Source: Escherichia phage A4
Sequence record: ON286972
Direction: 5' to 3' (one strand)
DNA: 64,000 nucleotides
Position 1 is the stretch's first letter, and each line of letters starts with the position of its first letter. The notes under the pieces are model-generated. The model made no database searches. It was given only the letters and a program-made list of their open reading frames with translations, and was not told the DNA's origin. This document shows, piece after piece, positions 5,644 to 11,617 of this stretch. Made by a program: the position numbers and the translations under genes.

Positions 5644-5976
5644 ATGCTAAATCTAGTTATTCAAGGTAATGTTGATATTACTCCAGCAATCCATGACGCA
5701 ATTCATCAAGAAGCAAACACTCTAAATAAATTTAGTGATTCTTCAGTACTGAATATTGGTGTTCATGTGAAAAAAGAGCATAAGACACAGTACGCAGTAA
5801 CTTTAACATCAGGTGGTAAGTCTGTTACTGCCGATGATGCAGATTTATACAAGGCGATTGTCGATTCATTCGAAAAAATGGAAACTGTATTCAGTAAAGA
5901 CAAAAGCATTAAATTGCACCGCCGAAACCATCCAGACCGTCCAGTTGTAGTTGATGTAACTGACGAAGAAGAGTAA
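5644..5976 (+). CDS. hpf: ribosome hibernation promoting factor (HPF/YfiA family) homolog
   Basis: 110 aa; N-terminus MLNLVIQGNVDITPAIHDAI parallels E. coli HPF MQLNITGNNVEITEALREFV; similar length and overall pattern. Confidence 0.75.
   Translation: MLNLVIQGNVDITPAIHDAIHQEANTLNKFSDSSVLNIGVHVKKEHKTQYAVTLTSGGKSVTADDADLYKAIVDSFEKMETVFSKDKSIKLHRRNHPDRPVVVDVTDEEE
5742..5753. repeat. 12-bp palindrome TTCAGTACTGAA
   Basis: Inside hpf, in the S-S-V-L-N frame. Confidence 0.8.
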
Positions 5977-5983
5977 TATAATA

Positions 5984-6012
5984 AAGGGACAGATTAATTC
6001 TGTCCCTTTTCT
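5984..6012 (+). terminator. rho-independent terminator after hpf
   Basis: AAGGGACAG / CTGTCCCTT stem, 7-nt loop, TTTCTT tail. Confidence 0.6.
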
Positions 6013-6027
6013 TATGGAGTTTTAATT

Positions 6028-6441
6028 ATGAATTATGCTTGGATGGAAATTGTAAAATCTCTCGTATCAACACATGATGTTGATTTACCAGATAGTCTAG
6101 TGTTTAATAGATGGTACTATCCAAATCCAGAGGACTGTAGGGTTGGAATTGGATTTTTTATTAATGATAAATCTAATTTGATTGGATTAATTGAAGATAT
6201 GAAATCCAACGCAGTATCAATCTCTATTGAGTTTAATGAAGACCACATAAAATACTACGACAATAAAATGGCAGAAGATGATGATGTTATAATCCCTGTA
6301 GATATAGACGAAGCTTCATTTTTTCAGTTATCATTGATTTATGATCTATCTAACATTACTTATGATAATGTGAAAGACCTTTTTATATTGTACAATAAAA
6401 TGTATAATTACTTTTTAAGACCTTTTTATATTGTACAATAA
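6028..6441 (+). CDS. hypothetical protein
   Basis: 137-aa ORF; its 3' end runs through the 43-bp tandem duplication. Confidence 0.5.
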   Translation: MNYAWMEIVKSLVSTHDVDLPDSLVFNRWYYPNPEDCRVGIGFFINDKSNLIGLIEDMKSNAVSISIEFNEDHIKYYDNKMAEDDDVIIPVDIDEASFFQLSLIYDLSNITYDNVKDLFILYNKMYNYFLRPFYIVQ

Positions 6442-6460
6442 AATGTATAATTACTTTTTA
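6375..6460 (+). repeat. exact 43-bp tandem duplication (2 copies)
   Basis: AGACCTTTTTATATTGTACAATAAAATGTATAATTACTTTTTA at 6375-6417 and 6418-6460; each copy carries an extended -10-like TGTATAAT. Confidence 0.85.
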
Positions 6461-6476
6461 TAATGGAGGTATTGTA

Positions 6477-6662
6477 ATGGAATATACAATAGGTGCAATA
6501 GTATGTATCGCAGCATTATTAGGTGGCATTGGTGTGATGATTTACTTTGATGCAGAACCCAGTACTGAAATGGGTACAACCCTGGAACTCAAACCTGGCA
6601 TTAAGGTGAACGACTCTTACTGTTACGATCCACATAGTAATAAGTATGTGATTTGTTTATGA
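6477..6662 (+). CDS. small membrane protein
   Basis: 61 aa, N-terminal hydrophobic helix, GGAGG RBS. Confidence 0.4.
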   Translation: MEYTIGAIVCIAALLGGIGVMIYFDAEPSTEMGTTLELKPGIKVNDSYCYDPHSNKYVICL

Positions 6663-7069
6663 AAAAGTTTAATATTAAACCGATATTTGATGCTATCGAA
6701 ATTAAATTGAAAGACCAACGAAAACCCGATGGTACTGGTTTATTCTTTAGTTTAGATAGAACCTACGTTGAAACACATGTATCAAGTTTTGATAGAACTG
6801 GTAATCTTTTCATCCGTTCATATAACATGTTTTATAGTGAAGATGTTTTTATGATAGATATCACTTTAGATGAAAGTATAGGTTTGATGTACATTGAAGA
6901 TGTTCAATCAAACGATCAACGAAACGGCACACTTCCTATTGGTGCTACCGAGGAAGAGTTTATGCAATATCAGTTCATTGATGATACCTTTGGTATTGAC
7001 TTTGTGACATATCAGAGTATAATGCGTGTATACGAACAGTATGAGGATTACGTAATTGGACGTTACTAA
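6659..7069 (+). CDS. hypothetical protein (paralog A of a tandem pair)
   Basis: ATG at 6659 overlapping the preceding stop (track starts at TTG 6653); C-terminus homologous to the next gene (QYQFIDDTFGIDF vs QYMFIDDTFSIDY). Confidence 0.55.
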   Translation: MKKFNIKPIFDAIEIKLKDQRKPDGTGLFFSLDRTYVETHVSSFDRTGNLFIRSYNMFYSEDVFMIDITLDESIGLMYIEDVQSNDQRNGTLPIGATEEEFMQYQFIDDTFGIDFVTYQSIMRVYEQYEDYVIGRY

Positions 7070-7478
7070 AATACCCAAATTCAACGAAACGTTAAAGTAC
7101 TTTTCTGAACAAGAGTTCAGTACTGAAAGACGTGGTTTAGTCACATACAACCAATATCGCGTAATGTATACTAACCAGTTACAAGGAACAGTACGTATTA
7201 AAATCCGTAATGCATATGATGATGGTGATGAATTATTAATTATACTAAGAAAAAGTAAGATAGAACTACAATACCATAGATTTGATACTTCCGATGAGTT
7301 TGCATGGAATGTGTTAGAAAAGAAAGTAGGTTCATTGCCTGTAGTTGATGATGGACCTGAAACACTTGATCAGTACATGTTCATTGATGATACATTTAGT
7401 ATTGACTATTCTTCATTTCAGTATATACTATCTATACATAAACAATATGAATCCCGCTTGCGTGACAGATTAATTTAA
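7056..7478 (+). CDS. hypothetical protein (paralog B of a tandem pair)
   Basis: TTG start with GAGGA upstream; C-terminal similarity to the preceding gene. Confidence 0.5.
   Translation: MDVTKIPKFNETLKYFSEQEFSTERRGLVTYNQYRVMYTNQLQGTVRIKIRNAYDDGDELLIILRKSKIELQYHRFDTSDEFAWNVLEKKVGSLPVVDDGPETLDQYMFIDDTFSIDYSSFQYILSIHKQYESRLRDRLI
7116..7127. repeat. 12-bp palindrome TTCAGTACTGAA
   Basis: Inside a CDS, in the F-S-T-E frame. Confidence 0.8.
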
Positions 7479-7489
7479 TTGGAGGCTTT

Positions 7490-7612
7490 ATGATTGCAAT
7501 GTTAGAAGAAGATTGGGGTGTTTCTGAACAAGGAACCGACGAATATCAAGTTCCAGAATACAAGCCAAAAGGCTTCTGGGAAAGTCTGCGTGATTGGTTG
7601 ATGGGAGAATAA
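7490..7612 (+). CDS. small hypothetical protein (40 aa)
   Basis: ATG with GGAGG RBS; acidic/tryptophan-rich; below the ORF-track cutoff. Confidence 0.25.
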   Translation: MIAMLEEDWGVSEQGTDEYQVPEYKPKGFWESLRDWLMGE

Positions 7613-7621
7613 GATTAGAAA

Positions 7622-8689
7622 ATGTATAAATTTTATTTTAATGAAAATAACGAGAAGGTATATTTCCATGAAGAATTAGGTATGCGTTTCGAATGGATGC
7701 GTCCCGAAGATTTATCACCAAAATTAATTAAAACATCAAAAACACCTAAAGAACATTTTGATGAAATAATAGAAAAAGGATATAATATTTTAGGATTTGC
7801 TATAACATCAAGTGATGAATGGAAATCTAGTTTTACAAGAACTGTTGTTGAAAAAGATGGTATTATATATACAAAAAGAAATATAAATGATATAAAAACG
7901 AAAGGTATGAAATATATCATTGGGAAATATGACAATGAAAATTATAGATATTATCTTTATAAGACTTCAAAAAGTCTAATGACTGGTGAATGTGAATTAC
8001 TTTTAGAACAACCAATAATTAAAGATAAAAGAACCAAATTAACTTATAAATGCTTAAAATGTGGTCACGTTGATGAAATGGAAATTAGTAATATACAAAG
8101 TGGTCAGGGTTGCTCTATTTGTCGATTTGAAAAAACCAGATTAGCACACGCATTCACCACCGCTGAATTTGTTGAACGAGCAAAAGAAATTCATGGTAAT
8201 GTATATAACTATTCAAAAGTCATCTACATTAATAGTAGCACTCATGTTGAAATAATTTGTAAAAAACATAATAATTCTTTTTATATCATTCCAAATTTTC
8301 ATATAGCAAAAAATAAAAATCAAGGTTGCCCAATATGCTCATCTGAACATACTGAATCCAGAGCTAGTAGAGAAATAACACGTTTTTTAATTGAAAATGG
8401 TATAAAATTTAATAAAGAACAAACATTTAGTGACTGTAAAAATAAAATGTTATTAAGATTTGATTTTTATTTGGTTGATTATGATATTTGTATTGAGTAT
8501 GATGGTAAACAACATTTTGAGAAATCACCTCATTGGGGTGGAGAAGATAAATTGAAAAACATCAAGGATAACGATACTATAAAGACACAATATTGTGAAA
8601 AGAATTTTATTAAATTAATACGTGTAACATATTATGAAGACCACTTAACTGTATTAAAAAAACATCTTTCAGAGGAAGGTATATTATGA
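7622..8689 (+). CDS. putative free-standing endonuclease (zinc-ribbon Cys pairs plus C-terminal PD-(D/E)xK Vsr/DUF559-like core)
   Basis: Several CxxC pairs (CLKCGH, GCSICR, GCPICS); C-terminal FDFYLVDYDICIEYDGKQHF...IKLIRV resembles the endonuclease core of Vsr/DUF559-type nucleases. Confidence 0.5.
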   Translation: MYKFYFNENNEKVYFHEELGMRFEWMRPEDLSPKLIKTSKTPKEHFDEIIEKGYNILGFAITSSDEWKSSFTRTVVEKDGIIYTKRNINDIKTKGMKYIIGKYDNENYRYYLYKTSKSLMTGECELLLEQPIIKDKRTKLTYKCLKCGHVDEMEISNIQSGQGCSICRFEKTRLAHAFTTAEFVERAKEIHGNVYNYSKVIYINSSTHVEIICKKHNNSFYIIPNFHIAKNKNQGCPICSSEHTESRASREITRFLIENGIKFNKEQTFSDCKNKMLLRFDFYLVDYDICIEYDGKQHFEKSPHWGGEDKLKNIKDNDTIKTQYCEKNFIKLIRVTYYEDHLTVLKKHLSEEGIL

Positions 8690-9798
8690 AAAAGTATTTG
8701 GTGGGCGGCTATGTGAGGGACCGTTTAATGGGTATTCGTACAAAAGACAAAGATTATGTCATTGTCGGTGCTACCGAATCCGATATTAAGTACTTACAAA
8801 GTATTGGCTATAAGCAAGTAGGTAAGGATTTTCCCGTGTATCTAAGTCCAGAGGGTAATGAGCACGCATTGGCCCGTACCGAACGTAAAACTGGTACTGG
8901 TTACGGTGGCTTCGAAGTGAATACTAAAGGCGTGACACTAGAGCAAGATCTATACAGAAGGGATATTACGGTAAATAGCATAGCGTATGATCCAGTACTG
9001 CAAATTCACATCGACCCATACGGTGGTAAAGCTGATATCAAGAATAAAGTACTACGCCATGTATCCGAGCACTTCAAAGAAGATCCATTACGTGTATTAC
9101 GTCTAGCTCGCTTTGCTACGCGTTATTCTGATTTCTCTATACACGAGACTACTGAAGCACTTGCAATCGATATGGTAGCGTCTGGTGAGCTAAATCACCT
9201 TGTTCCAGACCGTGTTTATGTTGAATTTGAAAAAGCACTGTCAGAAGAAAAGCCAGCTAAGTTCCTTAAAACACTAAGTAAGTTGGGTTACTATGAAAAA
9301 GCATTTAATGCAACATTAACCAAAAAGTCATTGGAACTCATTGATCATATCTCTGATAATTGTACTGAAGCATATAAGCCATATTTCTTATGGTCTGTGC
9401 TTCTTGAGAAAGAAGAAGTTGGTGAGGATTCAGTACTGAATGGTGCTATTAAAATGCCCGTTAAGTACGTTAAATTCAGTAATTACATCAAACGTTTCCG
9501 TGATGATATCAAGGCATTCCGTAAAAAGACCCCAAATGAAATGGGACAATTATTACTGGATATGAATATCAAGAATAACGGCGGTGAAGAATTCCTTTAC
9601 AAAGTACTGGAATATTTTATTCTACGTAAAGAGATTGATTTAGACCTTGAAGATTTAATCATTAAGGTATATGATCGTTACACTGATGTAGTACTTCCAG
9701 ATATTCAACAACTGGTAAAAGACGGTGAGTTAGAAGCATCTGAAATCCGTGATTTTGTTTCAGATTTACGTTGTGAAGCAATTCAACAAATGTTTTAA
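8686..9798 (+). CDS. cca: CCA-adding tRNA nucleotidyltransferase
   Basis: LVGGYVRD motif, DFPVYLSPEGNEHALARTERK matching E. coli Cca, RRDITVNS motif; 370 aa without the C-terminal HD domain. Confidence 0.9.
   Translation: MKKYLVGGYVRDRLMGIRTKDKDYVIVGATESDIKYLQSIGYKQVGKDFPVYLSPEGNEHALARTERKTGTGYGGFEVNTKGVTLEQDLYRRDITVNSIAYDPVLQIHIDPYGGKADIKNKVLRHVSEHFKEDPLRVLRLARFATRYSDFSIHETTEALAIDMVASGELNHLVPDRVYVEFEKALSEEKPAKFLKTLSKLGYYEKAFNATLTKKSLELIDHISDNCTEAYKPYFLWSVLLEKEEVGEDSVLNGAIKMPVKYVKFSNYIKRFRDDIKAFRKKTPNEMGQLLLDMNIKNNGGEEFLYKVLEYFILRKEIDLDLEDLIIKVYDRYTDVVLPDIQQLVKDGELEASEIRDFVSDLRCEAIQQMF
9429..9440. repeat. 12-bp palindrome TTCAGTACTGAA (14-bp ATTCAGTACTGAAT)
   Basis: Inside cca, in the D-S-V-L-N frame. 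Confidence 0.8.
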
Positions 9799-9804
9799 AA
9801 CTCT

Positions 9805-9832
9805 GGGACAAGAGAACGACTTCTGATATAAT
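9805..9832 (+). promoter_or_regulatory. sigma70-like early promoter upstream of the NUDIX gene
   Basis: GGGACA, 16-bp spacer, TGaTATAAT. Confidence 0.5.
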
Positions 9833-9884
9833 AATTGTATCTGGGCATCATTGCTATTAAGAGATAAGATTATGCGTTATAGTT

Positions 9885-10301
9885 GTGGCATTATATTTTA
9901 TCGTGATGGTCAGATACTTGTTGGACACACAACACGGACAGAAGCATTGGGATTTACCAAAAGGTAAAACCGAGGGCAATGAAACATTTGCTGAAGCTGC
10001 TGTTCGTGAGTGCTATGAAGAAACAGGATTTGAGATTGATGAAAAGGATCTTCTCTTATTAGGTGATGTATCATACAGGAAAGGGAAAAGATTAGTTTTA
10101 TTTTTCTATACAGCTAAATACAAACCCGAACCGGATGAACTGAAGTGTAACAGTACTTATACCAATCGATATGGTAAAAGCCATCCAGAATTGGATAAAT
10201 TCATGTACATTGATGTTCAAGATTGTCAAAAGTATTTGACCGAACGAATGTGTAACAGTATAATTAAAGCTGTTAAATTGTTTCAAAAAAATAAAGGATA
10301 G
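9885..10301 (+). CDS. NUDIX hydrolase, apparently frameshifted (N-terminal strand encoded in another frame from ATG 9872)
   Basis: Nudix box GKTEGNETFAEAAVRECYEETGFE; track ORF begins at GTG 9885, while ATG 9872 opens a 31-codon frame (MRYSCGIIFYRDGQILVGHTT...) that looks like the missing N-terminus. Confidence 0.55.
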   Translation: MALYFIVMVRYLLDTQHGQKHWDLPKGKTEGNETFAEAAVRECYEETGFEIDEKDLLLLGDVSYRKGKRLVLFFYTAKYKPEPDELKCNSTYTNRYGKSHPELDKFMYIDVQDCQKYLTERMCNSIIKAVKLFQKNKG

Positions 10302-10305
10302 TTAT

Positions 10306-10554
10306 ATGAAAGTGAAAATTTATGGTCGCACGACTGGTTGTAATTTCTGTGATACAGCAAAAGCAATTTGTGAGAACAATTCATTTGAAATGGATTTTAT
10401 CGATGTGGTTTCTGAAGGTATTGATGGTGCTAAACTATCAGAAATTTGCGGTGAGCCAGTTCGTCAAGTTCCACAAATTTTCGTAAATGATGAGTATGTT
10501 CCTGGTGGATGTACTGGTTTTGTTAACGGGCTAAAAGAAGGTCGCTGGAACTAA
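10306..10554 (+). CDS. nrdC: glutaredoxin/thioredoxin-like protein (T4 NrdC-like)
   Basis: 82 aa, CNFC redox motif near the N-terminus, PQIFVNDEYVPGG resembling the glutaredoxin cis-Pro region. Confidence 0.8.
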   Translation: MKVKIYGRTTGCNFCDTAKAICENNSFEMDFIDVVSEGIDGAKLSEICGEPVRQVPQIFVNDEYVPGGCTGFVNGLKEGRWN

Positions 10555-10793
10555 TGAATATCGATAAGGTATCATCACGAGCACGTGCATTGGCTGACAG
10601 TTTGGGAGTTAAATTTGAAACTCCAGATATCAACCAATCAAAACAAAAAGCTCAAAAGAAAATTCATGAAATGAAAGAATACACATCAAGACGTGAAGAA
10701 TACGATGCTGCTATTTCTCACATTATTGAAGTGTTTAGTAAAGATGATATTTTAGCATTTATTGCTTCACATGAGGTTGTAAAAAACCCCTAA
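10554..10793 (+). CDS. hypothetical protein
   Basis: 79-aa ORF, ATG overlapping the preceding stop. Confidence 0.5.
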   Translation: MNIDKVSSRARALADSLGVKFETPDINQSKQKAQKKIHEMKEYTSRREEYDAAISHIIEVFSKDDILAFIASHEVVKNP

Positions 10794-10843
10794 ATAATAT
10801 TGAAGAACAACAAGTTCTTCTTAACAATTTGGGAGATACTATT

Positions 10844-11086
10844 ATGCTCAGTTTTCGTGAACAATTAGCAAAAGGTCAATTTCAGACTAAAGCTCAAACA
10901 AATATTCCTAAAAAATCTGCATTCTTAGGAACAATTACGGAAGATGGTTATTGTGACTTCAATCCACCAGAAGATAGCTGGTATATTGAAAAAGACACAA
11001 AACGTAGTAATAGACTTCACAAAAGTACAATAGCAAGAAAGCATCGAAAAGAATTGAAGAAAATTCGTTTCGGTGAAGAAGAATAA
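10844..11086 (+). CDS. hypothetical protein
   Basis: ATG at 10844 with GGAG upstream (track starts at TTG 10829); basic C-terminus. Confidence 0.45.
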   Translation: MLSFREQLAKGQFQTKAQTNIPKKSAFLGTITEDGYCDFNPPEDSWYIEKDTKRSNRLHKSTIARKHRKELKKIRFGEEE

Positions 11087-11097
11087 CCTAATAATAT

Positions 11098-11130
11098 AAA
11101 GGACTTGAGATTATCGAGTCCTTTTCTTTT
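11098..11130 (+). terminator. rho-independent terminator
   Basis: GGACTTGA / TCGAGTCC stem (one G-U), 5-nt loop, TTTTCTTTT tail. Confidence 0.55.
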
Positions 11131-11140
11131 CGGAGAACAC

Positions 11141-11617
11141 ATGATACATGAACATCACGGAAATCTGTTTGAATTATTCAGTACTGTAACTGATGATCAT
11201 ACTGCATTACATATTATAGCTCATGGTTGTAATGCTCAAGGTAAAATGGGTTCTGGTTTTGCAAAAGAACTCAGAATGCAGTACCCAAAGGCATATGATG
11301 ATTATAAAGAATATGAAAAGAGAATGGGTTTTCTAAGAACCGGACAAATTGCATATTCAGCAATTAATGATGATTTGATTATCGCAAACTGCATTACTCA
11401 AAAATGGTACGGAACTGATGGTGCAAAATACGTAAGCTATGATGCCATTGATGACGTTTTCATGCATTTGAATTTTTTCTGTAAAATTGAACGAAATGTT
11501 CATGTACACTTTCCGAAAATTGGAGCCGATTTGGGCGGTGGTAACTGGAACGTTATCAAAGAAATCATTGACCACAGGCTGGTTAATGCTGAAAAACATT
11601 TATATATTCTCAAATAA
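11141..11617 (+). CDS. macro domain protein (OARD1/TARG1-like, Macro_2 type)
   Basis: LHIIAHGCNAQGKMGSGFAKEL and HFPKIGADLGGGNW parallel TARG1 LAHCISEDCRMGAGIAVLF and MPRIGCGLDRLQW; ATG 11141 follows a terminator hairpin (track TTG start 11105 lies inside the hairpin). Confidence 0.7.
   Translation: MIHEHHGNLFELFSTVTDDHTALHIIAHGCNAQGKMGSGFAKELRMQYPKAYDDYKEYEKRMGFLRTGQIAYSAINDDLIIANCITQKWYGTDGAKYVSYDAIDDVFMHLNFFCKIERNVHVHFPKIGADLGGGNWNVIKEIIDHRLVNAEKHLYILK

Follow-up and report, generated by a model that had tools for sequence, protein, structure and literature searches.

We analyzed a 64-kb window of the genome of Escherichia phage A4 (ON286972), in which all coordinates below are positions, and focused on the gene for the protein A4_535 and on the insert that carries it. 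A4 is a 121Q/PBECO4-like jumbo phage (Asteriusvirus). The open reading frame (ORF) at 7622 to 8689 on the plus strand starts with ATG and encodes 355 amino acids, and its product shows 100% identity to the hypothetical protein recorded as A4_535 for Escherichia phage A4. A preliminary reading of the DNA (here, the original prediction) had described a nuclease-like gene with Cys pairs directly upstream of cca, and the ORF, the CxxC pairs and the placement were all confirmed. The TGA stop of A4_535 overlaps the cca ATG (ATGA at 8686 to 8689), and the ORF downstream matches the Pfam PolyA_pol head domain (1.8e-18) and the tRNA nucleotidyltransferase family phrog_2244 (2.4e-112). The features of the locus are as follows.

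7490 to 7612, plus strand: gene of 40 amino acids, whose stop lies 1 nt from the cca ATG where the insert is lacking.
7613 to 8685, plus strand: insert (putative mobile cassette) of 1,073 bp, which replaces a single T or C of relatives in junction alignments.
7622 to 8689, plus strand: predicted homing endonuclease coding sequence, 355 amino acids (A4_535), with matches to PHROG 559 (8.7e-51) and to phrog_9084, "homing endonuclease" (3.1e-25).
8672 to 8679, plus strand: Shine-Dalgarno-like GAGGAAGG, within the 3' end of the endonuclease gene and 6 nt upstream of the cca ATG.
8686 to 9798, plus strand: cca (tRNA nucleotidyltransferase, from Pfam and PHROG matches), neighbor and proposed target gene.

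The endonuclease gene has a GC content of 26.3%, versus 36.2% for the window, and no paralogue of A4_535 was found elsewhere within the 64 kb. In A4, GAGGAAGG stands where insert-free relatives have GGGGGA before cca, and it would be expected to serve as the ribosome-binding site for cca. A promoter and terminator scan of the window returned 18 promoter-like sites versus 15.9 expected from shuffling; there was no excess, and no promoter of the gene's own was indicated.

The locus was compared with its relatives. By megablast, 40 GenBank phage records match the 5 kb around it at approximately 80 to 86% identity; nearly all are Asteriusvirus of the 121Q/PBECO4 type, with E. coli and Salmonella as hosts and genomes of 310 to 386 kb. 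Junction alignments with UE-S1 and 121Q showed that one nucleotide separates the stop of the 40-amino-acid gene from the cca ATG in these phages, and that the homology of A4 to both resumes exactly at the cca ATG, after 1,073 extra bases. By annotation, a 123-bp hypothetical coding sequence abuts cca in UE-S1, 121Q, slurp01, PBECO4, E9.1, WPEC5, Turkey3, vB_Ec-M-J and SD-15_S21, and the annotated loci of Turkey5 and ph0011 are likewise without the insert. In the megablast comparison, a single one of the 40 related records, TH47 (MT446416), covered the insert. Analysis by tblastn also identified TH47 as the sole record with a close copy (98.9% identity) at the cca site, all other matches to A4_535 having less than 60% identity and lying elsewhere in their genomes. 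A search of IMG/VR for the endonuclease found no relative, and a search of the same database for cca returned only 4 loci, including two that duplicate phages already in GenBank.

The comparison of A4 with TH47 bears on how the insert was acquired. Over most of the surrounding 5 kb, the flanks of the two phages show 65 to 88% identity. Between 7607 and 8999, however, there are 8 mismatches in 1,393 bp (99.4% identity), and dense mismatches begin directly on both sides of this tract. The tract consists of the insert together with the following part of cca.

8686 to 8999, plus strand: co-transferred 5' part of cca, 314 bp, which with the insert makes up the tract from 7607 to 8999.

To the right of 8983, the two resemble different insert-free phages: TH47 matches WPEC5 and Turkey3 at 98 to 100% identity over at least 1.6 kb, and A4 matches UE-S1 at 97%. 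In both comparisons, 8982 is the last position at which the insert-bearing phage differs from its insert-free relative, and A4 and TH47 first diverge from each other at 9000. Because A4 follows UE-S1 and TH47 follows WPEC5 and Turkey3 to the right of 8983, the same cassette resides in two different backgrounds. As read from these alignments, the tract from 7607 to 8999 is the footprint of a transfer with co-conversion, and the comparisons establish recent transfer of the insert and the cca 5' tract into at least two genomic backgrounds. The ORF is intact in TH47.

The position of the gene had originally been described as lying between unrelated genes. The comparative data instead indicate that the position is not accidental, and they point to cca itself as the target. 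We aligned the cca genes of A4, TH47, 11 insert-free Asteriusvirus phages and Klebsiella phage RaK2. Across the whole 1.1-kb gene, 13 positions are common to A4 and TH47 and occur in no insert-free genome. All 13 lie within 8686 to 8982, and 10 of them fall within 28 bp, at 8955 to 8982. When positions were permuted within the tract, none of 20,000 permutations gave an equally dense 33-bp window (p < 5e-5). The cluster marks the following candidate site.

8950 to 8982, plus strand: candidate target/immunity site, the codons of LYRRD(I/L)T(V/I)NSI of cca, recoded in the insert-bearing phages.

All 12 insert-free genomes read TAT (TCT in RaK2)-CG[C/T]-CG[T/A]-GA[C/T]-[C/T]T at the conserved YRRD(L/I)T motif, where A4 and TH47 read TAC-AGA-AGG-GAT-ATT-ACG-GTA. 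Both Arg codons have been switched by double substitutions. Of the clustered changes, eight of 10 are synonymous and the other two are conservative (L to I and I to V). Outside the cluster, the co-transferred part of cca contains 3 private positions over 264 bp; a divergent donor would therefore not by itself account for the cluster. Homing endonucleases are known to target the codons of critical residues, and free-standing phage enzymes cut hundreds of base pairs from their own gene, with co-conversion of the interval; such enzymes are often encoded in promoter-less cassettes (PMC2988022). On balance, we lean toward the view that the insert-free cca is cut at or near the YRRD motif and that phages with the recoded allele are immune. 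A 5-bp inverted repeat (TTGTA...TACAA) flanks the candidate site in alleles of the UE-S1 type; it is not conserved in other insert-free alleles and was given no weight.

A more distant lineage carries a homologue at the same place. P0002, the closest non-identical homologue of A4_535 (59% identity), is encoded on two metagenomic contigs, L018 and L019. Its gene directly precedes cca, which it overlaps by ATGA as in A4, and both contigs have nearly the same 3' junction as A4 (GAGGGTATATTATGAAAAAGTA). The contrast in GC content is also the same as in A4 (26% versus 36%). The upstream neighborhood differs from that of A4, with an HPF/RaiA gene directly upstream. Over the cca 5' tract, L018 is 64% identical to A4 versus 65 to 69% to the insert-free phages. 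L018 nevertheless shares six of the 10 clustered private states, including AGA at the first Arg, but none of the three outside the cluster. This pattern suggests, without being decisive, that the endonuclease and this part of cca are linked. Between A4_535 and P0002, the ratio of nonsynonymous to synonymous substitution rates (dN/dS) is approximately 0.2 in each of the three parts of the protein (N-terminal region, zinc modules and nuclease domain), and these values show, at the level of codon substitutions, that the endonuclease gene is under purifying selection.

These comparisons also bear on the alternative that the gene is ancestral and has been deleted in most relatives, with the likeness of A4 and TH47 due to ordinary homologous recombination in which no nuclease was involved. 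Asteriusvirus genomes are strongly mosaic throughout the region, and recombination tracts are common there without an endonuclease, which favors this alternative. However, the same 1-nt junction is present in every insert-free relative (RaK2 included for the cca allele), which makes independent precise deletions implausible. The GC content of the gene is 10 points under that of the genome, and the shared tract is bounded by the insert on one side and by the private, mostly synonymous cluster on the other. In addition, a phage whose upstream neighborhood differs has a diverged homologue at this same junction. We consider an ancestral origin extremely improbable.

Two unusual loci among the relatives were also considered. 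A different insert at the same site was suspected in BF17 and vB_Ec-M-J, since megablast homology stopped at the junction; it was rejected for vB_Ec-M-J, in which the 40-amino-acid gene abuts cca, and the cca of this phage is merely too divergent for megablast. In CMSTMSU (MH494197), cca and its neighbors are annotated as short fragments, with "tRNA nucleotidyltransferase" appearing three times, in a record that is flagged UNVERIFIED_ORG and whose ORFs are fragmented throughout. The idea that cca is split or interrupted in this phage was rejected in favor of a probable artifact of assembly quality, and the fragments look like assembly frameshift errors rather than biology.

We next consider the protein itself, which is divided as follows.

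7622 to 8011, plus strand: N-terminal region, residues 1 to 130, without a Pfam match and with a predicted local distance difference test score (pLDDT) below 50 over most of residues 14 to 103.
8021 to 8125, plus strand: partial zinc module, residues 134 to 168 (C144, C147, C164 and C167), matching DUF4379, CapR and the module hidden Markov model (HMM).
8153 to 8341, plus strand: complete CapR/DUF723-like zinc module of approximately 60 amino acids, residues 178 to 240 (C213, H216, C236 and C239), matching the module HMM.
8351 to 8686, plus strand: predicted Vsr/DUF559-like PD-(D/E)xK nuclease domain, residues 244 to 355, from AlphaFold (AF2), Foldseek and column composition.

The Cys pairs are C144-x2-C147, C164-x2-C167 and C236-x2-C239, which together with C213-x2-H216 make two four-ligand sites in all. 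The module HMM matches the partial copy at residues 134 to 167 (i-Evalue 0.001) and the complete copy at residues 179 to 239 (5.8e-26). The only Pfam match above the curated cutoff is DUF4379, "probable treble clef zinc finger" (residues 133 to 168, 2e-7); weaker matches are to CapR (0.0022) and to DUF2726 (residues 279 to 340, 0.046). NCBIfam gave nothing useful for A4_535. The N-terminal region is constrained (56% identity to P0002, dN/dS of 0.18) and is probably part of the DNA-binding portion of the protein. DNA binding by the zinc modules themselves may be assumed from the literature, in which CapR/DUF723 zinc fingers are described as repeated DNA-binding parts of T5orf172 phage homing endonucleases (PMC10448857).

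A search of a large database with A4_535 returned 524 homologues at an E value of ≤1e-5. This number, together with the dN/dS of approximately 0.2 against the 59% identical homologue, indicates that the ORF is more than a chance occurrence. In an alignment of 55 sequences, members have two to four copies of the module of approximately 60 amino acids, with the pattern ...IHGxKYDYSKVxY...C..HG.F.Q.P..H...GC..C, followed by a conserved C-terminal domain. Pfam matches among the 55 members are to DUF4379 (51), DUF723 (42), DUF2726 (8) and DUF559 (2). Members of the family occur in phages, where they often lie next to or within conserved genes, among them terL and the genes for RNA polymerase subunits. 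Relatives of A4_535 with 30 to 47% identity were detected by tblastn at other loci, in 6 places in TH47 and in 1 to 7 in other jumbo phages; examples are a "homing endonuclease" of JP4 (97405 to 98448) and a "homing endonuclease EDxHD" of Muenster.

The names given to these proteins vary. The family phrog_559 carries the label "HNH endonuclease," and RefSeq homologues in RaK2, GAP32, 121Q, LfeInf and other phages are often labeled in the same way. We found no HNH Pfam match in A4_535, and PF01844 was precomputed on only one homologue among the matches listed. Since there is no HNH match and a PD-(D/E)xK fold is predicted for the catalytic domain, A4_535 is not considered an HNH enzyme, and the label on PHROG 559 and the RefSeq homologues is probably a propagated misannotation. 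Several homologues have been named "very-short-patch-repair endonuclease" by JGI; neither A4_535 nor the family members gave a Pfam match to Vsr. The Pfam searches of A4_535 and the family also returned no match to NUMOD or helix-turn-helix (HTH) domains; zinc modules are found instead.

The C-terminal block FDFYLVDYDICIEYDGKQHF...IKLIRV, residues 280 to 335 of A4_535, had been taken for the core of a Vsr/DUF559-type PD-(D/E)xK endonuclease. A Foldseek search with the full-length model was diluted by the unmodeled N terminus, and residues 238 to 355 were modeled alone instead. AlphaFold predicted this segment with a pLDDT of 94 and a predicted template modeling score of 0.84, and the order of elements is alpha-beta-beta-beta-alpha-beta-alpha. 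Against the PDB, Foldseek matched E. coli Vsr (1vsr and 1cw0_A) with a probability of 0.99, a template modeling (TM) score of 0.51 to 0.55 and a root mean square deviation of 3.8 Å. Two Toxoplasma mitoribosomal proteins ranked ahead of Vsr (probability of 1.0). Vsr was followed by PvuRts1I, AbaSI, the restriction-like endonuclease (RLE) domain of the R2 retrotransposon, Cas4 SSO0001, TnsA, Hjc and RecE, and every named nuclease among the PDB matches has the PD-(D/E)xK fold. Against the predicted viral structures of BFVD, there were 169 matches at an E value of ≤1e-3, with TM scores of up to 0.92, including homing endonucleases of Enterococcus, Bacillus and Staphylococcus phages, a group I intron protein, DUF2726 and DUF559 proteins and treble-clef proteins. 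These models, and the DUF2726 and DUF559 matches of family members, bear out the proposed core; a PD-(D/E)xK fold for the C-terminal domain is well supported by the structure predictions, with Vsr as the best interpretable match. The original prediction had also named the outcomes that would count against it, namely, no nuclease-fold match or universal conservation in synteny. Neither outcome was observed: a PD-(D/E)xK fold was found by Foldseek, and the gene stands at the site in only one of the 40 related GenBank records.

Residues D281, I291, E292, G295 and H298 are invariant across the family, and D294, Q297, D318 and K321 are nearly so. In order to relate these residues to known catalytic positions, the C-terminal profile was aligned by hhalign with a single Vsr sequence, which reproduces the published residue numbers E25, D51, H64, H69, D97, W68 and W86. 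The hhalign probability was 1.1, and the alignment serves as a guide to residue correspondence and not as evidence of homology. It pairs, weakly, D281 with Vsr D51, D294/G295 with H64/G65 and the position of a family Glu with E25; from the spacing, the counterpart of Vsr H69 may be H298 and that of D97 may be D318. Two weak DUF559 matches among family members are in line with our reading that the invariant IE(Y)DGxQH block is probably more DUF559-like than Vsr-like. We infer that A4_535 is enzymatically active; it would be expected to make double-strand rather than single-strand cuts.

Taken together, sporadic presence at one fixed site, a predicted nuclease domain combined with a putative DNA-binding region, and transfer with co-conversion are the features expected of a homing endonuclease. 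We therefore propose that A4_535 is very probably a free-standing homing endonuclease of a recently recognized Vsr-like family, which spreads by "intronless homing." The original prediction had likened the gene to the free-standing homing endonucleases of T4-like phages; the homing interpretation is supported by its sporadic and mobile distribution, but the lineage is Asteriusvirus and not T4-like. In the proposed mechanism, the zinc modules, probably with the N-terminal region, would bind a specific DNA sequence, and the C-terminal Vsr/DUF559-like PD-(D/E)xK domain would cut the bound DNA. The likely target would be the cca of co-infecting insert-free relatives, at or next to the YRRD(L/I)T codons and approximately 270 to 300 bp downstream of the insertion point. 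The break would then be repaired by recombination from the insert-bearing genome, copying both the endonuclease gene and the intervening 5' part of cca, and the mostly synonymous recoding in the copied stretch would protect the new host from recutting. As the cassette is intergenic, appears to use upstream transcription and would supply the ribosome-binding site of cca, its cost to the phage may be low.

Several observations weigh against this proposal. The target is deduced from two close insert-bearing genomes and one distant lineage, and the recoded cluster could in principle be a hitchhiking patch from an unsampled divergent donor. The shared tract extends only 6 bp to the left of the insert, and no sampled donor corresponds to the left flank of either genome: TH47 departs from WPEC5 over approximately 85 bp, and A4 departs from both. 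As they stand in the alignments, the left flanks appear to fix neither the direction nor the number of transfer events. With respect to the fold, the E values of the PDB Foldseek matches are modest, approximately 0.01 to 0.05, and I-Bth0305I (3r3p) is absent among the matches listed. Sequence and profile searches of the PDB (phmmer with A4_535 and hmmsearch with the 55-sequence profile) gave no relative, neither 3R3P nor Vsr being recovered at an E value of ≤10; the lone match, to a 33-residue stretch of a tail protein (E = 0.81), was dismissed as chance. The papers searched yielded no cleavage assay for A4_535 or any member of its subfamily. The four differences between the A4 and TH47 copies of the endonuclease are all nonsynonymous, which is compatible with relaxed constraint although they are too few to interpret. 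Finally, a nearly invariant Glu of the family ("SKGE," present in 59 of 62 sequences) is Ser249 in A4_535 and is also Ser in P0002, a substitution that could alter or reduce activity.

The last two observations would fit a decaying or inactive endonuclease gene late in its homing cycle, kept for the ribosome-binding site of cca and for stop/start coupling. Such decay would also be consistent with the presence of one complete zinc module, versus two to four in most relatives, and with the location of the cca Shine-Dalgarno sequence inside the endonuclease gene. However, the occurrence of Ser in P0002 as well implies a stable feature of the cca-associated clade and not a recent lesion, and with a dN/dS of approximately 0.2 in every region, the variant has been maintained under selection. 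The remaining conserved residues of the catalytic region are intact in A4_535, and a 99.4% identical cassette in two diverged backgrounds indicates recent mobility. We consider decay unlikely. It is doubtful, but conceivable, that the cca-associated clade (A4_535, the TH47 copy and P0002), which has exchanged Glu for Ser and yet is under purifying selection, constitutes a variant that differs in mechanism, acting as a nickase, for example, or using metals differently, and that would recognize through its modular zinc fingers the DNA coding for the catalytic RRD motif of CCA-adding enzymes. If so, the cut and immune alleles would provide the first experimentally tractable specificity model for the family with zinc modules and a Vsr-like domain, and that model could possibly lead to a retargetable scaffold.

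The insert lies in a run of genes related to translation and RNA, from 5644 to 11617 on the plus strand. Besides cca, this run includes an HPF/RaiA-like ribosome-associated protein (5644 to 5976, from the annotation of relatives), a NUDIX hydrolase (9885 to 10301) and a glutaredoxin-like protein (10306 to 10554), and the ORF at 11105 to 11617 is possibly the counterpart of a protein that is annotated in CRJP21 as having an Appr-1-p (macro) domain. This neighborhood, rich in translation and RNA-repair functions, raises the question of whether A4_535 is a nuclease of benefit to the phage, either as a weapon that excludes co-infecting relatives or as an RNA or tRNA nuclease working with the cca, HPF, NUDIX and macro-domain genes. 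Mitoribosomal proteins among the top Foldseek matches to the PDB (probability of 1.0) could be seen in the same light, and free-standing endonucleases are known to cause marker exclusion (PMC2988022). However, at least 38 relatives keep the cca/HPF/NUDIX neighborhood without the gene, which is therefore not part of that module, and the co-transferred tract and the recoded cca motif are signatures at the level of DNA. Exclusion of competitors is not truly a rival to homing, being the same mechanism seen from the side of the phage. We regard a beneficial nuclease as very unlikely.

Further variation was observed to the left of the insert. Two slightly overlapping ORFs on the plus strand, at 6653 to 7069 and 7056 to 7478 (138 and 140 amino acids), both match phrog_20693 (1.4e-58 and 1.1e-44, respectively) and form a tandem paralogous pair. 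They are the most divergent stretch of the comparison between A4 and TH47 (55 to 75% identity), and the stretch is apparently missing or shortened in Salmonella phage SD-15_S21 and Turkey5. A second presence/absence polymorphism lies at approximately 6472, between the ORFs at 6028 to 6441 and 6477 to 6662: WPEC5, Turkey3 and ph0011 have approximately 0.45 to 0.5 kb of extra sequence, annotated as a 372-bp gene plus, in WPEC5 and Turkey3, a 126-bp gene, and this sequence is absent from A4, TH47, UE-S1 and 121Q.

A homing endonuclease at cca would in itself be an ordinary selfish phage gene, but its record of transfer is unusually clean and its candidate target is testable. The locus would document homing-driven mosaicism in Asteriusvirus jumbo phages. 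The family with zinc modules and a Vsr-like domain is very large, recently recognized and often mislabeled "HNH endonuclease"; thousands of UniProt matches have been reported (PMC12350094), and we found no biochemically characterized member among the papers searched. For such a family, the locus offers a gene that is intact, a near-isogenic pair of alleles representing the states before and after (WPEC5 and TH47), a precisely bounded co-converted tract and a 28-bp candidate site within a conserved enzyme motif.

We compared A4_535 with known systems. In layout, the insert resembles SegF, SegG and MobE of phage T4, which lie between genes as promoter-less cassettes, oriented like their neighbors, and cut an adjacent conserved gene hundreds of base pairs away with co-conversion of the interval (PMC2988022), as in the 7607 to 8999 tract of A4. 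The T4 enzymes have GIY-YIG and HNH folds, unrelated to the PD-(D/E)xK fold of A4_535; moreover, A4 is an Asteriusvirus, and the activity of A4_535 is a predicted one.

The prototype of the EDxHD family, I-Bth0305I (3R3P), shares with A4_535 a C-terminal Vsr-like catalytic domain and an N-terminal DNA-binding region, and its family includes free-standing phage members such as Hef. The composite motif of I-Bth0305I, E170, D196, N208, H213 and D222, corresponds to Vsr E25, D51, H64, H69 and D97 (PMC3239194). On the weak hhalign alignment and the similar spacing, A4_535 has D281, D294 (the x position), H298 and D318 at the D, x, H and D positions. In contrast, A4_535 lacks the first motif Glu at the aligned position and has a further invariant Glu, E292 (IEYDG), which is DUF559-like; zinc modules take the place of NUMOD and HTH domains. 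Because there is no detectable similarity to I-Bth0305I, no first Glu, and zinc modules replace NUMOD/HTH, A4_535 falls outside EDxHD sensu stricto.

Although E. coli Vsr (1VSR and 1CW0) is the best interpretable structural match of the nuclease domain, it is a chromosomal nickase of one domain, acts in the repair of T:G mismatches and has a zinc site of its own. A4_535 is a multidomain protein with N-terminal modules and a sporadic, mobile distribution, and is not a Vsr mismatch repair endonuclease proper.

The closest correspondence is with phage group I and group II intron endonucleases described in 2025, which have three to five CapR/DUF4379/DUF723-like domains of approximately 60 amino acids and an EDxHD/Vsr-related domain of approximately 100 amino acids, an architecture described as an outgroup of EDxHD/Vsr homing endonucleases (PMC12350094). 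A4_535 has both the zinc modules and the C-terminal Vsr-like domain of approximately 100 amino acids. It differs from the published examples, which are intronic, in being free-standing and intergenic, in having one complete and one partial module, and in its extra N-terminal 130 residues and the Ser at the conserved Glu. With both defining parts present, A4_535 fits this group of proteins with CapR-like modules and a Vsr-like domain.

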